Source of the DNA: Eledone cirrhosa
Taxonomy: Eukaryota
Length of the DNA stretch: 64,000 nt
Assembly: GCA_964016885.1 (NCBI GenBank)
Contig: OZ024746.1
Span: 89,156,001-89,220,000, forward strand
Direction of reading: 5' to 3'
Part shown: piece after piece, positions 7,696 to 61,370 of the stretch
Numbering within the stretch: position 1 is the stretch's first letter
Layout of the letters: every line of letters starts with the position of its first letter
Notes under the pieces: model-generated
Database searches by the model: none
Told to the model about the DNA's origin: nothing
Seen by the model: the letters and a program-made list of their open reading frames with translations, nothing else
Translations under genes and position numbers: made by a program

Positions 7696-7724
7696 CTGAT
7701 GAAGGGTGATACCCAGAAACGTTA
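7696..7724 (+). ncRNA. Minimal hammerhead ribozyme motif
   Basis: CTGATGA-a-gggt-gat-accc-a-GAAA-cg-TT; palindromic aacgtt stem III; stem I imperfect. Confidence 0.65.
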
Positions 7725-7866
7725 GTGTATGCACTTCTGTTCACATGCCAACACAAGAGCAAGAATGAAGGGTTCATTCTACTGACATGGCTATAAAATT
7801 GAGGCTTGTTTGCATAATTGCAAACGAATCGAATGTTATTATTAATATTCGAAAAACTCAGATAAA

Positions 7867-19030: not shown

Positions 19031-19560
19031 TTTGAGTCTCAGTCATTGATGTTAGTTAACTGACTGGAAAGTTTGTTGAAATGAATATCAAGCCACTACC
19101 TGCAGACTCAGATATTCAGGACGTATCAGAGAGTTCTTGCTGTTCCCAGCAAGCATGCCTTTTGAAGTGTTCCAAAAAGCGGGGCGGGGGCAATTCTCTT
19201 TAACCAACCCTTGAAACTCCTTGAGATAGTACCTAGTGCGCCTATGCCAATCGGGACCACTTTGACTTCATGGCAGTTCCAAATCCTTTTTACCTCCCAC
19301 TTTAAGTCCTGGTATCGGTTAATTTTCTCCCTCTCCTCCTCTTGCACTCTCGTGTCGAATGGGCAGGCCACATCCACAATCAGGCACGATCTTTTTTCCT
19401 TGTCCAAAACCACCAGGTCAGGTCTATTGTGTTCAGTTTCTTGTCCATCTGTATCCTAAAATCCCACAGCACCTTCACCTGATCGTTTTATATCACTGAC
19501 TCTGGCTTATGCTCATACCAGTTCTCAGAATGTGGTAAATTGTTTAACATTTCTTCTGTA
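19031..19560 (-). mobile_element. 5'-truncated R4/Dong-like non-LTR retrotransposon (restriction-like endonuclease domain and 3' UTR)
   Basis: RPDLVVLDK..IVDVACPFD..EKINRYQDL..VPIGIGALG..LQKACLLGTARTL is a PD-(D/E)xK REL C-terminus. The 3' end abuts (TAA)n, the known Dong target type. Confidence 0.88.
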
Positions 19561-22242: not shown

Positions 22243-22296
22243 TTATCCCTAATTGTTTGATGGTTATGTTTAAGAATTCTACTATCTCTTTTTGCA

Positions 22297-22342
<46 letters not shown>

Positions 22343-22397
22343 TGCAAAAAGAGATAGTAGAATTCTTAAACATAACCAACAAACAATTAGGGATAAT
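22243..22397. repeat. Palindrome: ~58 bp arms around a central (TA)n at the 5' truncation point of a Penelope-like element
   Basis: ttatccctaattgtttg...ttttgcaatac (TA)n gtattgcaaaaa...caaacaattagggataa. Confidence 0.92.
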
Positions 22398-24372
22398 GGC
22401 AATATTAACATTAGCAATAATATTGATACTGTGAAATACAATAACATTAACTTAAGCACTCACAACAGAACACCGCCAACTATTAGCAATGATAACGTGT
22501 ACAGTTTAAATTATAATAATAACAGTAAATCGAAATGTAACTGTAGAAATAGATCGAATTGCCCTCTGCAAAATAATTGTCTTGATAAGAACGTAGTTTA
22601 TAAATGACCCGTTAAAGCAAATAACATCACCTACAACTATATAGGTGCAACCTCATCGAGCTTTAAATTAAGATATTCGAATCACAAACACTCTTTTTGA
22701 ATCCGGATAAGAAATTCTCTACCTCTTTATCACAACTCATATGGTCCTTAAAAGATTTAGAGTACTCAATATCTTGGTCAAAACTTTGTAATAGCCAAGT
22801 CTACGTAAACTCCTCCGTATCACCTAATTACAATCTTTGCGATATGGAGACCCTATTAATAATTAATAATTATGATAAGTTAATTAACAAAAAAGTAAAT
22901 TATTCTCAAATTGCTTGCACAAAGCTACATCTACATTCCAAGCTTCACAAAAAATTAGGAAAAAACATTGAATAAATGTGAAATGATTTAAACGTTTATT
23001 AATAACTCTGAGCGTGAAACAATATTGTCTCAGATTAAACATTCTTGTAATGCTTTTATTATTTATACTATTATTAATATTAGATTAAGGGTTTCTACCT
23101 TAACATTGAAATTGTTAACCTGATCTCTGGTTGAGTACGTATGACCTTTAGATTGTTTAAATACATTTAATTTTGGTTTTTGGTTTTTGTATTTTCTAAA
23201 TCTTATCTCTTATATATTTGATACCTTTAATATATTCAGACTTGTAAACCGTTTAATTACTTTGAATAGTTGTTTACGATTCATGAGGATATGATTATAC
23301 ATTTATAGTATAAAAGTCTCCTTAGATCCTAGTTGATGAATTTTTTTTGTACTTAAATTGATGTAACATTTTAAATACAGTAAAATCTAGTTGAATCAAA
23401 TTTATAACACTCTTAACAGTAATTATATTATATGTAAGTGACTAATATCGTCTTAAACCTTAACATTTATAGTCTATATATAAATTATACAAATGTGTAT
23501 AGCTAGATAAATCTGGTTTAATAATATCTTATTAAATACATATGACTTATTAATAGCATCTTAATTTTAATGATTTTGACTAATATATTGATTATATTCT
23601 CAATTTTAATATACTTTTAAATATACTCGTGATTACCTTTGGAGTTATGATAAACATAAATTTATCTCTTTCACGTTACTTGAACTCTGATATAATACAA
23701 TAATATAAATCCTTTAAAATTTTATAGTCTAAAATCTTATGTCATTTGATTAATTGACTATTTCTAATTAACTTAAGATTTGAAAATAAACGGTCACGCA
23801 TCATGTGCCTAAATATTCTCCCACCCACCCCTATCTAATTATACGCTATTTATATGTTACAATGCATATCTTCCTCCCTTTGTTTATACCATTTAACTTA
23901 TTTTCCTCTCTCTATCATTTGATCATTTCTCCATTCTCTTGTTCCTACCATCAAATCTCCTTTTTCTCTCTTCCCTCATGATTTGCTATCTTGATCTCTC
24001 ACTTCCACTATCTACAATAATGAGGTATGAATACATTATTATTATTAACATTTTTAACAGTTATATAAGTTTATGTATTATATATTATTAGTTATTTATA
24101 TATCTTATACACATTCTCATAAGCACCCTCTGTATTATATGTAATTTTTCATGTTTCAACTTAAGGTATATAAATATCGAGTTTTGTCATAACTAATCAC
24201 TGCAATGACTAAATTATAACCATCAACATAGTCAAGGTATGTCAGGCATCAACTTATTTTATCTGATGAGGACGTACTGTTGAAATAGCTCAGTACCTCT
24301 GAAATATGTATAATAAAATATTTTTGATCACATGAATGTCTATATTTATTAATATTTTGAAGTAATAGTATA
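22338..24372 (+). mobile_element. 5'-truncated Penelope-like element: decayed GIY-YIG endonuclease, long AT-rich 3' UTR, terminal hammerhead
   Basis: [62 protein letters not shown], homologous to 32891-33550; bounded by (TA)n. Confidence 0.88.
24255..24320 (+). ncRNA. Minimal hammerhead ribozyme in the Penelope 3' terminus
   Basis: Stem I tattttat/ataaaata (8 bp), core CTGATGA, stem II gtactg/cagtac, GAAA, near-palindromic tatgta, UH = TA. Confidence 0.85.
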
Positions 24373-29931: not shown

Positions 29932-30446
29932 GATAAAAAAGAGAAAGAAAGAGAATAAGAGTGTGATGATGGGAAAATGAAGGGAAATTAGAAATTAAGT
30001 AGCGAGAGAGAGAGAAGGCGAGTATAGGGAGTGGCTGTGTGTGGGAGTGTCTATTTGTAAATTAGTAAGGATGGGTTTGTAGGCTAAAGAAAGTCGAACA
30101 TAGAAATAGAAATTGCCAACATTTCTGAATTTTGTTTTTAGTCACACGATTATAACGATATAGATACTGTTGTCATCAACCATTACGTCATCGGAGAGAT
30201 ACTACATACACTTTCAGTATAAATAATTCAAGAACATATAGTTGTAAACAGACACACACATATACATATATATATATATATAGATAGATAAATATACACG
30301 GGTGTGTATGATTGTGTATAGAAGATTATATTAATAAGAGGAATTCCAACTTTGTCTGATTTACTCGTTTTATTTACAATCCTTTAAAATTTATAATGGT
30401 ATTATAATGAAATAGTATGATAGAATATTAAATTCTAAGTGTTAAT

Positions 30447-30485
30447 TGAACAAGTACTTTCATGCTTTCGCAATCTTCAGGTTCA
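30447..30485 (-). ncRNA. Minimal hammerhead ribozyme (left-arm copy)
   Basis: Exact reverse complement of 30572-30610. Confidence 0.8.
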
Positions 30486-30571
30486 TAATGTGTGGTGACA
30501 GTCAAGTTTGCAATTTACAACTGTCTTTTATCACAGTTGAAAATTGCAAACTTGACTGTCACCACATATTA

Positions 30572-30610
30572 TGAACCTGAAGATTGCGAAAGCATGAAAG
30601 TACTTGTTCA
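30572..30610 (+). ncRNA. Minimal hammerhead ribozyme (right-arm copy)
   Basis: tgaac-CTGAAGA-t-tgc-gaaa-gca-t-GAAA-gtac-TT-gttca: 5 bp stem I, GNRA-capped stem II, palindromic aagtactt stem III. Confidence 0.8.
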
Positions 30611-30678
30611 ATTAACACTTAGAATTTAATATTCTATCATACTATTTCATTATAATACCATTTCATTATAATACCATT

Positions 30679-30753
30679 ATCCTTACGGGGTCGATAAAAT
30701 AAAGTACCAGTAATGTACTGGTAATTGCTGGCCTTGTGCCTAAAGTAGAAACA
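30679..30753 (+). mobile_element. 5'-truncated SINE inserted in the palindrome arm, 16 bp TSD
   Basis: TSD attataatacc(a/g)ttat at 30665-30680 and 30754-30769. Confidence 0.92.
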
Positions 30754-30824
30754 ATTATAATACCGTTATAAACTTTAAATTGTAAATAAAACGAGTAAAT
30801 CAGACAAAGTTGGAATTCCTCTTA

Positions 30825-30885
<61 letters not shown>

Positions 30886-30889
30886 GTGT

Positions 30890-31275
<386 letters not shown>

Positions 31276-31428
31276 ATATATATATGTAAAAGATACAGGA
31301 ACGAAAACCAACCCAAACCAAACAGTGAGTGTGTTCTGTTATTATTTCTGTATATATATTATTTCTGTGTATATATATATATATATACAATATTAAATAA
31401 ATGGAAACTATATTTATAAAACCATATC

Positions 31429-31494
31429 TATTTCATTATATATATTTCAGGGATATCATATTAACAATATGCTATGCCTTCCTCAGACAAAATA
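31429..31494 (-). ncRNA. Minimal hammerhead ribozyme in the 3' pLTR
   Basis: Reverse complement of 34724-34789. Confidence 0.85.
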
Positions 31495-32890
31495 CAATAT
31501 AAACAGTTTTATAGATAAATAGATTCGACATACCGTAACAACATCGACTTGTATTTGAAAAGGTTGATTTGGCAGTGAAAAAATTGTACACAGAGAGAAA
31601 GAAAGAGAGAAAAAAAGGAAAGAAAGACAGAAAACGAAGAAAAAGAAGAAAAAGAAGAAATGCATGGAACAAAATAGAGAGATGGAAAGATAGATAAAGA
31701 GAAGAACTTCATGTAAAGAAACAGAAAGAGATATATATATATATAGAGAGAGAGGAAATAGAGATAGATACATATATATAGAAAACTAGGTAGTGGGACG
31801 TCTGTTGAGTAAACGTATCAATGATACATTTATTTATTTATTTATTTATTTAGCTCTAGTATTAATGTAAGGGAGATATATGGAGAGAAACCAGCTGTTA
31901 TATATATAGAGAAAAAATATAGAGAGAGGAAAAATATAGAGAGAGAAAAAATTAAAAAATAACCAGATATAGGCGAGGCGTAAAAAACCCTATGTTTTAA
32001 TGTAGAGGTATTAGTATTTATAAAAACCAGCCACTATATTGTAAATATCAGTATTCCTGAATGAGACATGTATCCATAATGTGTGAAAATTAATGAACTT
32101 ATGTTTAGTTTTAAAAAAAAAATTCATATGTTTAAGTGATAACTACAAACATCTATGTGAATCTACATGATCAACTCTGCAAACCCTAAGTTCACGGAAA
32201 ACATTCTCAATGTGGTATAAAAATGTAAGTATACATATATGTTTATATATATACACACAAATATATATAGAGTCAATATTATTATTCCTGTCTTTACTCT
32301 ACAAGATTATCTATCAAGCAGAAATAGAGAGCAGATTTCAATATACTAATAAAAATATATATCAGAAACAAAACTAAAAAATAACAATAATAATAATAAG
32401 TAATAATAAAATAGAAAACTAAAAAATATTACGAAAGAATATTACATATTAAAAATATTACATATTAAAAATTTACATATTAAAAATATTAAAAATAAAA
32501 ATATTAGAAAATACTACAATAATAAAAATAAAAATAAACCACAAAGATCAACCCTTCAAAATTAATTGACAATATATTGCCAAGTTCATTATAAGCATCA
32601 GAGTCGAAAAACAGATAAAGCCAAAAATTATCTATCAAATCGCATCTAGCAAAGATCATTTCAAAAAAGTTTAGGATGCCCAATTTGGTCTACATGTGTT
32701 CTTATATTTAATATAGAAGTTTATCTAGTGTAACGTTTATTCGAAATATTTGGAGCATCAACTTTTAGGGTAGCTTAATTTTTCATGAAGAATGTTTAAA
32801 TAAAAATAAATAAAAATAAAAAGAATAAAAAGAAGGAATCAAAGATTTATCGGCTAGTTTCCCATATAATTATAAATCAAACTAAATATA

Positions 32891-34250
32891 CTACATTTTA
32901 AATTTAAATTTATATTTAAACGTTGAGTTTAATCTATGTTTGCAACAACTGAATAAATTTGTCCGTAGATTAAGGGAATTTTTAGATTTTAGTATAAAGA
33001 ATATCTCCTCTGCGCAGAGGTCACATGTCTCAGAGGATGAATTAAAAGGAATCCCTCTTGAGACTATATTCCAAGCCGTCGAATATCTAACGTTATCTAG
33101 CTTAAGTTGCCAGAGTACGCCTGATAGTGCCGTTGAAGATTTTTTGCTTGGATCTGTGAAAGAATTCTTGTGGTTATTATAGCGAAGTTTAAATTCCGTC
33201 GATGTGGAACCGACGTAGTTAAAAGAATTAGAGTCAGTATTAACATTACAATTGTATACTATATTTTTAACTAAGCAGTTGTTATTTAACGGACATTTAG
33301 ATCTATCTCTACAGTTACATTTGTTAACTTGTATATTATTTATGCTATTATCACTAGGTTTTAAGTTCCTATTATTTATTCTATTAATATTTTGTGCTAA
33401 ATTTTTGGTGGATGAGTAGGTCAATTTTATTGTATGTCTATTGAAAATTGAGTGATACCTATGTGTTCTAGGGAAGCGATTATCAAGAGCTTTAAAAAAT
33501 AGTTTAGCGATGTGGGTTTTAATGTTTAGTGAGAAAGGGGGGGGGGGCAAACCAAATTATGTTCCTAGTTCTATTTCTTTTTTGGCCTTTGGAATTATTG
33601 TAATGCTTTCTATTATAGTTGTTAAGGTTGTTGCCGTAATTAAAAAAGTTGTTACTTTGTTTAGTTTGTCTATCATTATCTATGTACACAATCTTATCAG
33701 CATATCCTGCTCTAGCTAATGCTTCATTGTAGTATTGGGCTTTTTCGTCGAAAATCTTTCTATTCGACGAGATCCTAGAGATACGTTTTTGAACAGAGTT
33801 TACTATAGTGTTTTTGACAGATCTGGGGTGGTTAGAGTTAAAGTTGACATAGTTTAAGTTTTCATTCAACTTGTGAAAAGGATAGTGAAGACATGTGTTG
33901 AGATTTAATGTTATATCTAGGAAATTGACTATTCTATGGTTGTTCTCAATTTCTATTTTAAGATTAAAGTAATTAAAAAATTGTGTAATTTGTTTACATT
34001 TTCTATTTAGTTCAGAGTTATTATTATCAATAAGTAAAAGCATGTCATCTCTATATAAACCTCCGGTAGTACCAGGTATTTTCCTATGTAGCGAATTGAT
34101 TAAAAATAAGCCCACAAGGTCAGTTACCTGAGCTGAGTCGGATGATCCCATAGTAATGTCAAAATTGCTATCTCTATCTGCTCTGGTCCATAGTTGGTCA
34201 TTAAATTCTATCAAAGGTTTCCTAGCCGATAATATAATATGCATTTCATA
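32891..34250 (-). pseudogene. Penelope RT (C-terminal half) + GIY-YIG endonuclease, one frameshift in a G/C run at ~33540
   Basis: FDITMGSSDSAQVTDLVGL, GLYRDD, VNFLDITLNL, YVNFNSNHP, IIWF.PPFS, CNCR..CPL..CL..NIVY, YVGSTSTEFKLRYNNH, CDLCAEE, CKHR. Confidence 0.93.
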
Positions 34251-34723
34251 TTTTTAAATTTTTATTTATTTTATTTATTTTTAAATTTTTTCTCTCTCTA
34301 TATTTTTTCTCTCTCTATATAACAGCTGGTTTCTCTCCATATATCTCCCTTACATTAATACTAGAGCTAAATAAATAAATAAATAAATAAATGTATCATT
34401 GATACGTTTACTCAACAGACGTCCCACTACCTAGTTTTTTATATATATGTATCTATCTCTATTTCCTCTCTCTCTCTATATATATATCTCTTTCTGTTTC
34501 TTTACATGAAGTTCTTCTCTTTATCTATCTTTCCATCTCTCTATTTTGTTCCATGCATTTCTTCTTTTTCTTCTTTTTCTTCGTTTTCTGTCTTTCTTTC
34601 CTTTTTTTCTCTCTTTCTTTCTCTCTGTGTACAATTTTTTCACTGCCAAATCAACCTTTTCAAATACAAGTCGATGTTGTTACGGTATGTCGAATCTATT
34701 TATCTATAAAACTGTTTATATTG

Positions 34724-34789
34724 TATTTTGTCTGAGGAAGGCATAGCATATTGTTAATATGATATCCCTGAAATATATATAATGAAATA
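34724..34789 (+). ncRNA. Minimal hammerhead ribozyme in the inverted pLTR
   Basis: Stem I tattttgt/atgaaata (two GU), CTGAGGA, stem II agg..catat/atatg..cct, GAAA, palindromic tatata, UH = TA. Confidence 0.85.
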
Positions 34790-34993
34790 GATATGGTTTT
34801 ATAAATATAGTTTCCATTTATTTAATATTGTAAATATACTCCAAATATTGTCGAGTGCTTTTATATCAGTTATAAATATTTACTAGTTGTAACCCAACAA
34901 TTTAAATATAACTTTCCATGTATATATATATATATATATATATGGAGGAGGTTACAGTTCACTTGAAGCATTGTGTAATGAGGTATAAACGTT

Positions 34994-35984: not shown

Positions 35985-36345
35985 TATAAGTTTCCGGTTT
36001 GTTGGTTGGTTCGATAATCCGAGGTTGTTTATATATTGTCAAAGATCTATCGTCACACATTCTGTGATCTCTACAAAAACAAGATGGTGTAGGTCAGAAC
36101 AAAGGAGGGACAAAAAATAAAAACGTAGTCACTGAAGAGGTCAGAGAACGTGTGACGAAAGAGCTTTGATATTATATAAACAACGTTGGTTATCGAACCA
36201 ACCAATCGGAAACTTATAATAAATTCAAGTGAAAACCAACAGGTGCGTGTGTTTTTATTGGCCGCATGACCCTCCAAAATTACAATAATATTTGTTTCAA
36301 CACACGTTTTCAGATAAGGAATCTCGCAAAACAAATTCAAAATCG
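35985..36345 (+). mobile_element. Diverged fold-back element between (TA)n tracts, with hammerhead at 36128-36170
   Basis: 35985-36077 pairs with 36132-36218. Motif gtca-CTGAAGA-g-gtca..tgac-GAAA-gagc-TT-tgat. The unpaired tail recurs at 49550-49650. Confidence 0.8.
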
Positions 36346-42914: not shown

Positions 42915-45012
42915 GGTTTCTTTATAGATCACAAGGGCTAACATGAAGAAAAACATTACAGACGGCCCAGAACAGTACAGGACGATACAAAGTGGGTTTG
43001 GTCGTGTAAACAGGTTATAACAAGATAGAAATCGGGATAGAAAAAAAACAACAAAAAAAACAACAAAAATTCCCCCAAAAGGGGGAAACCTCCGAGGGTC
43101 ACTTGTGTCGAAACACACACAAAGACCACGGCCACCGTGACCACCAGAACAAGCGCCCTCTCTCAGTTTTCCACGCCTCAGTCTGCAGACGCATACTTAG
43201 AGTGGATCACGCTCGCCACTTTCACCCACCTTTCAACAAACTTACTAGAAGCCAGCACTTGCCTCTCGACCCTCATTTTCCTCTTCAAGTGAAATTTGAA
43301 AAAGTTAATCAGTGATTCGCCGAAGAGGAAAGTGTCCGTCTTCAATCCTTTCAACCTTGTCCACCATACAATCTCTTTAGCCATGGCCACCAGGCAGATG
43401 AAAATTACCTGCCCTTCCTCCTCCTTAAAGGAGGACGGCGAGGCTATCTGCACAATGGACTCAGTCGATAACAGGATCCATCCTACACGTGACAGCAAAT
43501 GTTCGACATAGCTTCACAAGTGAGCAATGCTCGGACACTGAACCAGTGCGGACACAACAGTTGTGCCGCTCTGTGCGCATCTCGGACAGGTTCGGCTGAC
43601 GGCACTTCCGTGCCTGCAGAGCTTATCTCGAACCGGCAACGCTCCCCGGTAGCACTGCCAGGCCAGGGATTTCCGGATGTTGTCCATAGACCCCGGGCTG
43701 AAAGTTCTCTTGAAGAGAACGAACAGCTGATCGTCTTCGACGCCCAGGGTCTCCGCGAGAACGTCATCATTCTTCCCCTCCACTAGTCCTCTATAGAACG
43801 CCGAGGTGGATGTTCCACCAATATTAGTGCCCAACTGGTAGAAGGCTGTGAGTGCCTGGAGACATTCACCTTCCAAGCTCTATCCCTCGCTCTTTTCCTG
43901 ATCCAGGACTGCAGTTCCGTTAATGAAACGAGCTGAGGAAAAACACGTCTGGCAAACAGTGACCACACCTGTTCACCGGCAAGGAAGCACCAGAGATATC
44001 GCAGCTTCAGCCCGTGTTTGCGCATCATCAGCCACGGCATGCCCAGCCCTTCAGGCAACGGATGTTGACAGCAGATGGATCGTCTGACCATGGGAGCCCG
44101 TCCCTTCCATAAAAAGTGGAAGAGGAGGCGCTCCATTTTGGTTAGAGTTGAGCGGGGGCAAGGCACAACGGTTAGGCGGTAGTAGATAAAGGATGCGATG
44201 AACGCATTCGCCACCTCTGCTTCACCTTTCAGGGACAGCCTCCTTTCGGCCCATTTCTGCGTGAGAGAGGCCACCCTGTTCGTCATCTCACTCCAGTTTC
44301 TCTCCATCTGGAGGTCCGGACCGAACCAGACCCCGAACAATTTAACCGGTCCTTTACGTCCAGCGCCCCCACAACTCTGCCGGGCGGCATGAACTTGCCT
44401 CTCCAGGTGTCGAACTGCAAGCCCACCGACCTTTCCTGGTTTAACTTTCCTCCTGTCACTGCTTCATATTCCTTGAGTGCGGTGCCCAGCATATGGACAT
44501 GTCCAGTGCTTGACACCACCACGGTGACGTCGTCGGCGTAAGCCGATATGGATCTCCCACATCCCATTTCACGTGGGACGTCTCTCATCGCCTCCAATTT
44601 GTGCAGTAACGGCTCTAGGGCCAATATGTACAAGGGCGACGAGAGGGGACAACCCTGGCGGACCGAGCGCATGATGCTGAACTGCTGTGACAGATGACCA
44701 TTCACCTTCACAACTGAGCAGATGTCGCTGTGCATCGCAGCGATCCAACCCCTGAAAATGGGCCTGAAATCAGTCGCCTCGAGGACCACCACCAGGTACC
44801 GATAGTCGAACCTATCAAATTCCTTAGATTGATCTAAGTTGATCAGGGCCCCTCTCGTGCCAGGTTCCTTAACCACTCTCTCTATGATGTATCGCATGAG
44901 GTGGAGGTTGTCTTGGATGGATCTGTCTGGAATGGCTCATGTCTGTGTCTCTCCTACCAGATTAACGACGACAAGCGCCAATATCGTTGCTAACACCTTG
45001 GCCAAATTCTTG
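42915..45012 (-). mobile_element. 5'-truncated, frameshifted L1/Tx1-type LINE (RT, C-terminal Zn motif, 3' UTR)
   Basis: LINLDQSKEFDR, VRQGCPLS, AYADDVT, CPRC motifs; homologous to 59520-61370; (TAA)n flanks. Confidence 0.93.
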
Positions 45013-45034
45013 AAATAATAATAATAATAATAAT

Positions 45035-45198
45035 AGAAAATTGGCCCTTCACCCTTTTTGGAACGCTTCAAAAGGCATACTTGCTGGGAACAGCAAGAAC
45101 CCTCCAATACGTCCTGAATATCTGAGGCTGCAGGTAGTGGCTTGATATTCATTTCAACAAACTTTCCAGTTAACTAACATCAATGACTGAGACTCAAA
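45035..45198 (+). mobile_element. 3' tip of the R4/Dong-like element inside (TAA)n
   Basis: Reverse complement of 19031-19200 (LFGTLQKAYLLGTARTL + 3' UTR). Confidence 0.9.
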
Positions 45199-45235
45199 TA
45201 GTAATAACAATAATAATAATAATAATAATAATAAT

Positions 45236-46427
45236 GCTTTCTTTATTAACCACAAGGCTTTACATAAAGTAGACATTAAGGACAGTACAGGATAATACAG
45301 GACAGTACAAATGGGCATTTCTGCGAGTAAAAAACAAAAACAGAGGATGTAACAACAAAATAACAATGAAAAATTCCCCAATAGGGGAGAGACTTCCGAG
45401 GGACATTTGTGAAGAAAGCCCATTAAAAGGCCACAGTGACCCTGACCACCAAGTGCCCTCTCCCAGTTTTCCACCTTTAATTTACAGACACATACTCAGA
45501 GTAGGCTCATTCACTCGGGCCATTCTTGCCTCTCTCACCCATCTTTCAACAAAATGCTGAGAAGAGAGCACTTCCCTCTTTACCCTGATTTTCCTTTTCA
45601 AATGAAATTTGAAAAGGTTTATCAGGGCATCACCGAAGAGGTAAGTGCTCGTCTTCAGCCCTTTCAAACGTGTCCACCATACTATCTGTTTCGCCATGGC
45701 CACCTGACAGATAAAAACTGCCTGCACTTCCTGACTAAAGGAGGAGGGCGGGGAAATCCTGACGATGGACACAGCTGATAGCCGGATCCGTCCTACACGC
45801 GACAGCAGGTGTTCGACATAAACCCACAAGTCAGCAATGCTCGCACATTGGACGAGTGCGTGCATGACAGTTTCGTCGCCCTGCGCGCATCTCGGACATG
45901 CCCGGCTGACGGCACCTCTATGCCTGTAGAGTTTATCCCGAACTGGCCAAGGTCCTCAGTAGCACTGCCAGGCCAGGGATTTCTGGAAGTTGTCCATAGG
46001 CTCCGGCCCGAAAGTTCTTCCGAAGAGATTGGCTAATTGATTTCCGTCGACGCCTAAAGTTTCCCCAAGTACTTCGTCGCTCTTCCCCTCCACTAATCCT
46101 CTATAGAACGCCGAGGTGGAGTTTCTGCCGATCACATTGCCCGATTGGTCGAGGGCTGTGAGCGCCTGAAGACATTCCAGTCTCCAAGCGCTGCCTCTCG
46201 GTCTTCGCTTAACCCAGGACTGCAGCTCCGTCAAGGAGACGAGCTGAGGAAAGACACGTCTAGCAAACCGCGACCACACCTGATCACCGTCGAGGAAGAG
46301 GTGGAGATGTCGTAGCCTGAGCGCGTGTCTGCGTATCATCAGCCACGGCAAGCCCAGCCCTCCACGTAGCGGGTGTTGACAGCAGATGGACCGCCTGACC
46401 ATCGGAGCGCGTCCCTTCCACAAAAAG
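45236..46427 (-). mobile_element. 5'-truncated L1/Tx1-type LINE
   Basis: WKGRAPMVRRSICCQHPLRGGLG..WQCY..CPRC..HALVQC; 3' UTR shared with 533-710. Confidence 0.93.
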
Positions 46428-46445
46428 CGAAATAATAATAATAAT

Positions 46446-46544
46446 TGTTTCTACTTTAGGCACAAGGCCAGAAAATACCCAGTACATTACTGGTACTTTA
46501 TTTTATCGACCCCGTAAGGATGAAAGGCAAAGTTAACCTCGGCG
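46446..46544 (-). mobile_element. 5'-truncated SINE
   Basis: SINE 3' half; gcgaaataataataat occurs at both 46427 and 46542 (possible TSD). Confidence 0.9.
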
Positions 46545-57900: not shown

Positions 57901-57935
57901 GTAAACCTTCCTCTCTCTCTGTTTAACCTGCCAAC

Positions 57936-60900
57936 ATGGCCGTATTAAGAGTAGGATGTTTAAATGTTCGAGGCCTGGGATCGTCCTGGAAGCAGGGTCA
58001 CCTGCTCAACGGCCTCAGGTCTATAGAAATGGATGTAATTGCAGTCAGCGAGACCAGGATTTCCGACACGCGCGCACTAGCCCCATTTTCGACGACTATC
58101 AGATCTTTGCATCTGTTAGCCGGCCGGGAATGGGAGGCGGGGTGGCAGTGCTGTTTAGGAAAGGCCTGGATCTCGAGGTAAGGTCGATCTTCTGGGACCC
58201 GGACGGGAAGTTAGTGGTCCAGGACGTGAACAATAATGAAGGTGGTGCCTTTAGACTGGTGGCCGTCTATGCTCCTACTGGGGCAGGGCGGCCGGACTTC
58301 TTTAGACGCCTGGAAGCCTTTCTGGGTACGTCTCGCCCTTTACTGTTAACGGGGCACTGGAACAGCATCTTAGACGCACGCTGGGATTGTGTGGGAGTAT
58401 CCGATAGGAGCGAGGGGTGCAAAAGCCTCCAGAACCTGATCAGCCAGTTCCAACTGTCTGACAGGTACCGACTAGATTTCCCTAATGCGCCAGTGTGGAC
58501 CTGGGCTAACCGCATAGGGTCATCTAGTTCGTATATAGACAGGATATTCATTAGGAAAATAGACAGAAATAGTGTAAGCTGTCCCCGTTTTGAAACGGTC
58601 GCCTATTCAGATCACAAGTTTGTGATCTGTATGGTCGACCTAGACAAGACGCGTAGGTTAGGACCTGGTTACTGGAAGCTGAATATGTCATTTCCGGCAC
58701 GTAAGGCTTACAGGGACCAGGTCAACAATTTAGTTAAGAAAAAGTTGACAGGGGGAATCGTCAACAATAGATGGTGGGGGGGGGGGCTCTCAAAAGAGAG
58801 ATTAGAGTAATGTCGATAGAGTTTAGCAAAGAAGTAGCATTAGAGAAAAATAGAAAGGAGGGGGAGTTGGTAGATAAGTTAGACGAGGTTATTGGTAGTG
58901 GCATTGCAACTGATGTGCTAGCGGCGAGAATGGCATTAGACCATTTCTTCAATGCGAAACACGAAGGTTGCATTGTCAGAGCTAAGGCGCGTGCTCTGAG
59001 AAACGAGGGAACCAAAGCTGTTCGATGGGCCTGCGTGGCGGAGGCGCAGCGTGGTAATAAAACCACGATTCGGTCTTTGACGTACCGAGACGGGCACGAG
59101 CTGAGGGATTCGAAGAGGATGTGTGAGGCCTTTCGCCAACATTTTGCTAGGTTGTTCGGGGGAAGTGGCGGGTCAGAGATGGTGGCGGACTTCAGTCCCT
59201 ACCTCGATGGCTTGCCGCAACTCTCGACGGCTGTTGCTGGGCGCTGCAAAAGGCCAATTACTTCAGCCGAGATTCAGGATGCCCTTGTCGGCTGCACGAG
59301 GCGCAAGTCACCCGGTTTGGATGGTCTGCCCTACGAGCTTTACGTAAATATGCCAGACTTGTTCTCCAATCTCCTCGAAGCCCTCTACTGCAACTGGCTG
59401 CAAAACGGGAGTATTCCCAGTTCTGTGAGCCGTGGCGTAGTGACGCTGATAAGGAAAGACGAGAACAAGAGGGACACATTAGACAATTTCAGGCCCATAA
59501 CTCTGCTCAATACAGAGTTTAAGATTTTGGCCAGGGTGTTAGCGAAGAGGTTGGCGCTTGTCGTCGGGGATTTGGTCGGGGAGGCGCAAACTTGCGCAAT
59601 CCCAACCAGGTACATACACGAGACCTCCACCTAATGCGATACATCATAGAGAGGGTAGGGTGTAAACCTGGCTTCGGTGGGGCTCTGATCAATTTAGATC
59701 AATCGAAAGCATTCGATAGGGTCGACCATCTGTACCTGGAGGCTGTCCTCAAGGCGGCTGGCTTCGGCCCCGTCTTCAGAAGCTGGATCGCTGCAATGCA
59801 CAGCGGCACCTGCTCGATGGTCAACATTAATGGCCACCTCTCAGAACCATTTCGGGTCTCCCGATCGGACTGTCAAGGGTGCCCTCTCTCCTCCGTTCTG
59901 TACGTATTGACTCTCGAGCCTTTACTGCGGAAGCTGGATCTGTTGCAGGGCATCCCGCTCGAACCGGGACGCGGAAAGGCTGTGTCGGCTTATGCGGACG
60001 ACATCACCGTAATGGCGTCGGACACCTCAGAAATCGAGGTGGTCGGCAACTTATTGGAGGAATATGAAAGGTTGACGGGAGCAAAACTTAACCCGGAAAA
60101 GTCAGTGGGCTTGCAACTCGGCACCTGGAGAGGCAAGTCCATGCCGTCCCACAACGTCGTTAGGCGCTGGACGGACAAACCGGTAAAGTTGCTAGGGGTT
60201 TGGTTCGGGCCAGAGCTCCAGGTGGATAAGAATTGGGACGAGGTGACGAGCAGGGTAGTCAGTCTCACCCAGAAATGGGCTGGGATGAAGCTATCACCGA
60301 AAGGTCGGGCGGACGTGGCGAATGCGTACACCGCGTCCGTCATCTACTACCGTCTGACTGTCGTCTCTTCCCCCCGTTCGCGCCTCGCCATCTTGGAGCG
60401 GATCCTCTTCAAATTTTTATGGAGGGGTCAGGTTCCGCTGGTGAGGCGGTCCATCTGCTGCCAGCACCCTCTACGTGGAGGGCTGGGCATGCCGTGGCTA
60501 ATGATGCGCAGGCACGCGCTGAGGATGCGACATCTCCAGATATTCTGCCTAAACGGTGAACAGGTGTGGTCGCCGTTTGTCAGACGGGCCTTTCCGCAGC
60601 TCGTTTCTTTGACTGAGTTGCAGTCCTGGCTCAAGAAGAGACCGAGACTGGGTGACTGGAATCTGCAATGTTGCCAGGCACTCACTGCCCTCTGCCAGGC
60701 GGGCAATGCGGTCAGTGGAACTTCCACTCTCGAGTTCTATAGAGGATTAGTGGTGGGCAAGTGTGACAACGCACTCGGAGAGGTTCTGGGAGTCAACGAA
60801 GTCGAACTAACCAGTCTGTACCGGAGGACTTTCGAGTTGGGGACGATGGATAATTTCCAAAAATCCCTCGCTTGGCAGTGCTACCGGGGGGGGGGGGGGG

Positions 60901-61370
60901 CACTGCCAGTTCGAGATAAACTCTACAGGCACGGAAGTGCTGTCAGACGGACCTGCCCGAGATGCGCGCAGAGCGACAAAACCGTTCTGCACGCACTCGT
61001 CCAGTGTTCGTGCATTACTGACTTGTGGAGTTATGTTGAACAGCTGTTGTCGCGTGTAGAACGGATCCGGCTATCGGCCGAGTCCATAGTGAAGATCGAC
61101 CCGCCGCCTTCTTTTAACCAGGAAGGGCAGGCAATTTTCCTCTGTCTGGTGGCAGTAGCGAAAGAGGTTGTATGGTGGACGAGGTTGAAAGGACTGAAGA
61201 CAGACACTTTTCTCTTCGGCCAATTCCTCATCAACTTTTTCAAGTTTCATTTGGAAAGGAAGGTGAGGGTGGAGAGAGAAGTGCCCCCCCCCAGTACATT
61301 TGCTGAAAGGTGGGTGAATGTGGCGAGAATGGCCCGTGTGAGTGGGCCTACTCTGGTCATGCGGCTGTAG
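57936..61370 (+). pseudogene. LINE ORF2: APE endonuclease + reverse transcriptase + Cys/His motif, three frameshifts (~58085, ~58780, ~59620)
   Basis: LNVRGL, VSETR, YAP, IDRIF, SDH, WKLN, KSPGLDGLPYE, NFRPITLLN, DQSKAFDRV, QGCPLS, YADD, CPRC..HALVQC. Confidence 0.95.

Follow-up and report, generated by a model that had tools for sequence, protein, structure and literature searches.

A palindrome in the 64,000-nucleotide stretch of Eledone cirrhosa DNA analysed here (the window), whose arms carry mirror copies of a hammerhead motif, is probably a twin-arm insertion of a Penelope-like element (PLE) into a (TA)n tract, in which two separately primed cDNAs would have been joined head to head and into one arm of which a SINE would have inserted later; in a minority of its relatives the template RNA would have been cut at the hammerhead. 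The locus is an ordinary one, one of at least 870 similar palindromes, and is itself likely inert. Taken singly it matters little, and what is interesting is the set of junctions across the family, which likely record both the position at which the RNA starts and that at which the ribozyme cuts in vivo. The family bears on two questions about PLEs, whether their hammerheads cut in vivo and how their head-to-head structures originate, and as it is young, has apparently intact copies and offers about a thousand mappable junctions, both can be tested directly.

Architecture of the locus

Each arm consists of the initial 200-240 nt of the terminal repeat (pLTR) of a 4.2-kb element that encodes reverse transcriptase (RT) together with an endonuclease of the GIY-YIG kind (EN). 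The left arm (30327-30524, minus strand) spans pLTR positions +1 to +198, with +1 at 30524, as seen from its alignment to the right arm and from its match to the natural full-length copy L046, to which it is 93% identical over 291 nt. The right arm (30533-30832, plus strand) runs from +1 to about +198, and the two +1 ends meet head to head across an 8-nt filler, CTTTTATC (30525-30532). The initial annotation had placed the palindrome at 30327-30832, but the left arm reaches further, to about 30290, because it alone carries the PLE tail, a 37-nt 3' extension (30290-30326, minus strand) that matches a 5'-UTR stretch preceding ORF1; the right arm is tailless. To the right lies a (TA)n microsatellite (30828-31107), the likely insertion target, and to the left a shorter (TA)n tract (approximately 30262-30281). 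The arms, of about 198 bp, had been described as free of coding sequence, and indeed the ORF list holds no long non-repeat ORF across them. An ARAGORN scan found nothing, and we discarded the thought that TTACAG might be a 3' splice site, since the arms retain ACAG.

The arms are not identical. Their 184 compared columns contain three substitutions; there is also a 3-bp indel and, in the right arm, an insert of 105 bp, which consists of a 16-bp tandem duplication (30635-30678, plus strand; TRF period 16, 2.8 copies) adjoining the 3' piece of a 5'-truncated SINE (approximately 30679-30758; repeat family D17), the latter occupying 30665-30769 on the plus strand together with its flanking target-site repeats (30665-30680 and 30754-30769, 15 of 16 positions identical). 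Palindromes next to long (TA)n tracts are generally error-prone, and while the repeat itself is present in all four contig sets, no Logan contig covers the whole locus, so that one might think of a fold-back artefact of assembly or library preparation. However, the arms have a SINE, a tail and substitutions that set them apart, and on many contigs the centres fall at the same two positions of the element while the letters at the junction vary, which leaves this idea a negligible probability, and we agree with the initial annotation that the palindrome is genomic.

The hammerhead motif

The two 39-nt motifs are letter-identical, that at 30572-30610 (plus strand) being the same as the reverse complement of 30447-30485 (minus strand), just as had been annotated. 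Each is composed of a 5-bp stem I (UGAAC/GUUCA), CUGAAGA, a U.U apposition, a 3-bp stem II with a GAAA loop, a second GAAA and a palindromic stem III, AGUACU, and so contains the type I minimal core (CUGANGA / GAAA / UH) together with stems I and II; this core and the palindromic stem III bear out the description of a minimal hammerhead of the dimer type with a CUU site. The sequence and a descriptor scan place the predicted cuts between 30605 and 30606 on the plus strand, after element position +73, and between 30452 and 30451 on the minus strand. In fold predictions stem III cannot close in the monomer but permits dimerization: its duplex is put at -8.8 kcal/mol, and two copies of the motif cofold as a double hammerhead at -16.4 kcal/mol, with an extra A14-U17 pair. 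The hammerhead is thus predicted to be active only as a dimer. The pair G10.1-C11.1 is absent, the U.U standing in its place as originally noted, and since this is a described natural variant (Perreault 2011, PMC3088659) the expected activity is lower while the likeness to a hammerhead is unaffected.

No hammerhead appears among the 108 Rfam matches to the window with E<=1, the matches being microsatellite-driven miRNA, and the 39-mer alone folds no better than its shuffles (z -0.28), so that the hammerhead is called from its core letters, its stem pattern and the context of the family. Among 100 arms there is no common polymorphism from +39 to +89, a span of which +44 to +60 was fixed by the search itself, and there are no compensatory changes. 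By descriptor, the window holds two further type I hammerhead-like motifs, at 36132-36175 and 7696-7737 (both plus strand), with a G-C-closed stem II; the fold intended for the former differs from the predicted minimum, and the folding of both is like that of shuffles.

The source element

Upstream, longer copies of the repeat pass a promoter-like region and enter a GIY-YIG ORF, which is the linkage to a Penelope ORF that had been proposed as a check. Two loci, L046 and L048, are elements of about 4.2 kb in which a 476-codon frame overlaps a 775-codon frame for RT and EN; the latter matches Pfam GIY-YIG above the cut-off (E 3.3e-6) and RVT_1 slightly below it (E 2.9e-6; 27.6 bits against 29.6). 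In both, the sequence of the 37-nt tail follows the pLTR and precedes ORF1. L048 has two direct copies 4.2 kb apart and one inverted copy, with a hammerhead in both direct repeats, and L046 is a head-to-head double full-length element. Read by eye, the translation has a C-terminal EN with a CxxC inside the GIY-YIG core and a linker, CNDNRCGTC, that fits CX2-5CxxC; this linker, a mark of Neptune and Nematis (PMC8557442), is accompanied by the CCHH motif of that clade.

The two overlapping frames of L046 and L048 depart from the single ORF of EN+ PLEs, although a two-ORF Neptune has been described (PMC12602865), and the two may be expressed as one protein by a -1 frameshift. The overlap of the 476-codon frame with that of the RT is 90 nt long, lies in the -1 phase and has an in-phase T TTT TTA heptamer (L046:6000-9661, plus strand; L048; L049), which makes it a candidate for programmed -1 frameshifting, although the predicted downstream fold is only a weak one (-5.8 kcal/mol); our literature search found no programmed -1 frameshift of this kind for Neptune. 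Separately, at L046-L047 (G000:C1:21872000-21880700), two full-length elements with open frames make up a near-perfect palindrome of 8.4 kb whose centre lies at the hammerhead site. It runs for 2,981 consecutive matching bases outward from its centre, and such a structure with its frames still open indicates that the PLE family is very young.

The PLE fragments beside the palindrome in the window belong to a different family: the pieces at 31109-31249 and 32891-34253 were considered as its source and rejected, as they have no DNA match to the full-length copy, and Pfam and PDB searches with them came back blank. This second, broken family occupies 31400-34830, with RT and GIY-YIG pieces at 32891-34253 (minus strand) lying between the two halves of an inverted repeat, each of about 550 bp (31400-31960 / 34290-34830), and an RT fragment also at 31109-31249. 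Elsewhere in the window there is another palindrome with a (TA)n centre (22259-22380 and 22515-22697), adjoining a PLE endonuclease fragment, and, by eye from the ORF list, there are broken LINE-like endonuclease/RT frames at 57905-61370 (plus strand), 43514-46450 and 19126-19455 (both minus strand).

Copy number and SINE insertions

The 28-nt hammerhead core occurs in 5,871 exact copies in the 3.0-Gb genome and its reversed-pattern control in none, so the motif is not a matter of chance. Mirror pairs with a spacer of 76-105 nt number at least 870. When the first 100 listed copies were examined for neighbours less than 10 kb away, 23 pairs were head-to-head, 2 direct and none tail-to-tail, and 38 of 50 sampled palindromes had (TA)>=5 on both sides.

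The SINE of the window had been taken as proof that the palindrome has persisted in the genome. A SINE with a 16-bp target-site duplication is indeed present in one arm, and its restriction to that arm means that it most likely inserted after the palindrome had formed; yet nine other loci of the family have this SINE at that very site, one of them (L280/L281) as a piece in both arms, which weakens the proof. Altogether 11 of its 15 matches, representing 10 loci including the one in the window, lie at the same PLE site with different 5' ends, and longer copies are found at that site elsewhere, which makes the site a recurrent target. A single SINE subfamily has thus been found repeatedly at the ATTATAATACC site of the PLE with varied 5' truncations (window 30665-30769; L271, L274-L277, L279-L283).

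Junctions at the putative RNA start

Junctions were scripted for 49 of the 870 palindromes plus the one in the window, for 50 of the 111 palindromes centred near +74 and for 15 of the 37 in a flanking control. In the first set the longer arm begins at -1 to +2 in 44 of 50 cases (41 under a stricter rule), and 889 copies begin at +1 behind three foreign bases. The centres thus concentrate on a single base, and 31 nt above it stands a TATA box: four of five longer copies, belonging to two subfamilies, have the motif at -31, and CCAAT boxes lie upstream. Many junctions have spacers of 1-7 nt with 1-4 nt of microhomology. On these motifs and junctions, +1 is likely the 5' end of the RNA, in which case the templates that end there would have kept their hammerhead uncut and would have left behind loci without a promoter. 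For the palindrome in the window this can be put directly, as both of its arms begin at element +1 and the putative TATA/CCAAT promoter is therefore missing from the locus.

Junctions at the predicted cleavage site

A second cluster lies near +74. There are 111 palindromes centred at approximately +69 to +84 against 27 and 37 in the flanking windows, a comparison in which the ratio of 111 to 37 is inexact because the downstream control was anchored differently from the other two. The longer arm begins at +72 to +78 in 45 of the first 50 palindromes of this class, no two of which had both flanks in common, and 18 of the 27 palindromes of the upstream window likewise have one arm at +72 to +77. 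The double full-length locus L046, 8.4 kb in extent, is also centred here. Single ends set the cut site apart less clearly, with only 23 ends bearing foreign bases there as opposed to 12 at +4 and 2 at -6; inspection by eye shows 4 of the 23 to be substitutions or deletions, and some 8 of the 12 at +4 to be joins at a shared AATT or indels. Several non-palindromic joints begin exactly at GTTCAATT after ORF or foreign sequence. In four loci (L077, L082, L083 and L090) the ORF is joined straight to the start of the predicted 3' cleavage product in direct orientation, and these are possible template jumps from cut RNA ends.

The precision of this cluster has limits. The cut site falls within a natural 4-bp inverted repeat, TGTT-CAATT-AACA, which favours joining and is used by 10 of the 50 junctions, so that their true end may be anywhere in +73 to +77; 11 of the 50 end at +76/77 rather than +74, and the class peaks at 73, 76 and 78. 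It could therefore be argued that the hammerhead is silent in vivo and that the pile-up marks a pause of the RT or a hot spot of microhomology in this AT-rich sequence, an account that competes with one step only of our proposal and overlaps the others. It would draw on the natural inverted repeats at +63 to +84 and on peaks that are not confined to a single base, as well as on the weak stem II, the ability of U17 to pair with A14 in the dimer fold and the low in vitro activity reported for PLE hammerheads (PMC4209133). On the other hand, longer natural repeats nearby yield far fewer events, 6 of 37 for a 6-bp inverted repeat at +88/+99 and 4 of 15 for the perfect 8-bp palindrome of stem III (both read from listings), microhomology amounts to just 1 nt in the 11 events of the 76/83 class, and several joints that are not palindromic at all start exactly at GTTCAATT. 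We regard silence of the ribozyme as possible but the less probable alternative, and are inclined, with some reserve, towards hammerhead cleavage in vivo; the junction counts would suggest that about a tenth of the RNA templates of the family were cut. The expectation that cleavage-centred palindromes would mostly be full-length was not borne out (1 of 50, against 0 of 50 in the other class), so that the anticipated tie to RNAs with two hammerheads is not seen.

Tails, arm alleles and a model of integration

In 130 of 142 palindromes one arm, and one only, bears the tail, and of 109 informative loci 58 have the tailed arm as the longer at the centre. A tail on one side that has no association with which arm is the longer at the centre is best accommodated by two cDNAs, started from two target ends and then joined. 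In the model that we propose, the RT/GIY-YIG protein would cut both target strands within a (TA)n tract in a single integration event, and each target end would prime cDNA synthesis on the same RNA or on sibling RNAs, one cDNA beginning at the end of the tail and the other some 40 nt further in. Both would be extended to the RNA 5' end at +1, 31 nt below the TATA box, and their 3' ends would be joined through short microhomology or filler, with either one trimmed. Where the RNA had been cut, in a minority of roughly a tenth, palindromes centred at about +74 would result; in the window the predicted hammerhead would have been carried along uncut, with the SINE inserting later in one arm. The RT of PLEs is not known to have an RNase H, and could thus use a single RNA as template twice.

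The arms of a palindrome generally share their alleles. At the double site 90/91 only one of 98 pairs is discordant for both common alleles, against 0.54 of pairs expected at random, and the idea that the arms usually come from RNAs of different subfamilies was rejected for this reason. Matching haplotypes fit equally well with copying by fold-back, in which one cDNA would reach the RNA 5' end, prime itself there and copy itself, the endonuclease trimming the second arm before the tail. Some rare variants are also common to both arms (17, against 143 confined to a single arm), the SINE piece in both arms of L280/L281 and the short spacers with microhomology at many junctions are as this route would have it, and self-priming has been proposed for the palindromes of rotifer PLEs (PMC3846280). 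Yet the tailed arm, being the first, should then always be the longer at the centre, which is so in little more than half of the informative loci; in some loci, that of the window included, both arms begin at +1 and filler lies between them; and a few, such as L118 and L227, carry different subfamily alleles on their two arms. Fold-back is in our view unlikely, and twin priming followed by joining remains the preferred reading.

The initial annotation had also suggested that the locus might be a self-inhibiting ribozyme or a source of long dsRNA. Its premise is upheld by prediction: a transcript read through both arms would fold into a very stable hairpin of -311 kcal/mol that hides the ribozyme, burying all 39 nt in their own antisense. 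That such a device is kept here by the host is nevertheless very improbable, as the locus has no promoter, is one of 870 that are alike but vary in their junctions, as befits a routine product of integration, and has taken up substitutions, an indel and a SINE in its arms with nothing to single this copy out. A collective output is another matter, and it is possible that hundreds of such loci jointly feed dsRNA into small-RNA or editing pathways; antisense small RNAs are reported for rotifer PLEs (PMC3846280).

Relation to known systems

Pairs of hammerheads on opposite strands, head-to-head palindromes, the one-sided tail and U10.1-U11.1 have all been published before. What may be new is the use of the family as a fossil map of 5' ends, recording both in vivo cleavage by a U.U-closed PLE hammerhead and twin priming on sense RNA, a combined reading that we put forward tentatively and with slightly more doubt than confidence. 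In the literature listings and passages that we consulted, genomic 5' ends at the hammerhead site of a PLE are not described.

Thousands of dispersed minimal type I hammerheads in the terminal repeats of PLEs, mostly truncated ones, were described by Cervera & de la Pena (2014, PMC4209133), who already reported opposite-strand pairs about 100-700 bp apart. Their motifs share with ours the palindromic helix III for cleavage as a dimer and the nucleotide after A9, but the stem II here is of 3 bp with a GAAA loop and lacks the G10.1-C11.1 pair called highly conserved there, and the present family is homogeneous in sequence. The U-U start of stem II in our predicted hammerhead is the same as in the natural U10.1-U11.1 variants, in which it is the best-tolerated mismatch (PMC3088659). 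Head-to-head inverted pLTRs with a one-sided tail of 30-40 bp are likewise known (Arkhipova 2013, PMC3846280; Craig 2021, PMC8557442), and the resemblance extends to the inverted 5'-truncated copy at the 5' end, the junction palindrome, the tail at one end, the TATA and Inr of the pLTR and the (TA)n targets. The difference is that hundreds of loci here allow the junctions to be mapped; their clusters, one at +1 of the sense strand and the other at the hammerhead site, favour a sense template over the antisense self-priming suggested in 2013 (PMC3846280).

The closest biochemical parallel is with the purified Anolis PLE protein, which cuts and extends both strands, starting at two sites that bound the tail (Frangieh 2024, PMC11167929). 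The two RT start sites, the AT-rich targets and uncut RNA as the main template are all shared with our model; as a point against it, that study reports no RNA-seq reads ending at the hammerhead site and finds cleavage dispensable in vitro. The Anolis element, PAc, is a one-ORF Poseidon, whereas in the present family the linker is CxxxxCxxC, there are two overlapping frames, and junctions in the genome pile up at the hammerhead site. Compared by motifs, it resembles EN+ PLEs of the Neptune/Nematis type (PMC8557442), with the RT followed by a C-terminal GIY-YIG, the CX2-5CxxC linker, the CCHH motif and a bias for microsatellites, from which it differs in its upstream 476-codon frame overlapping the RT frame at the T TTT TTA heptamer. 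Finally, the metazoan non-LTR retrozymes (bioRxiv 10.64898/2026.07.22.740005) are likewise short units derived from PLEs that do not code for protein and carry a type I hammerhead, but they form head-to-tail tandem arrays in which each unit has its hammerhead, whereas the pairs here are head-to-head, 23 against 2 direct.
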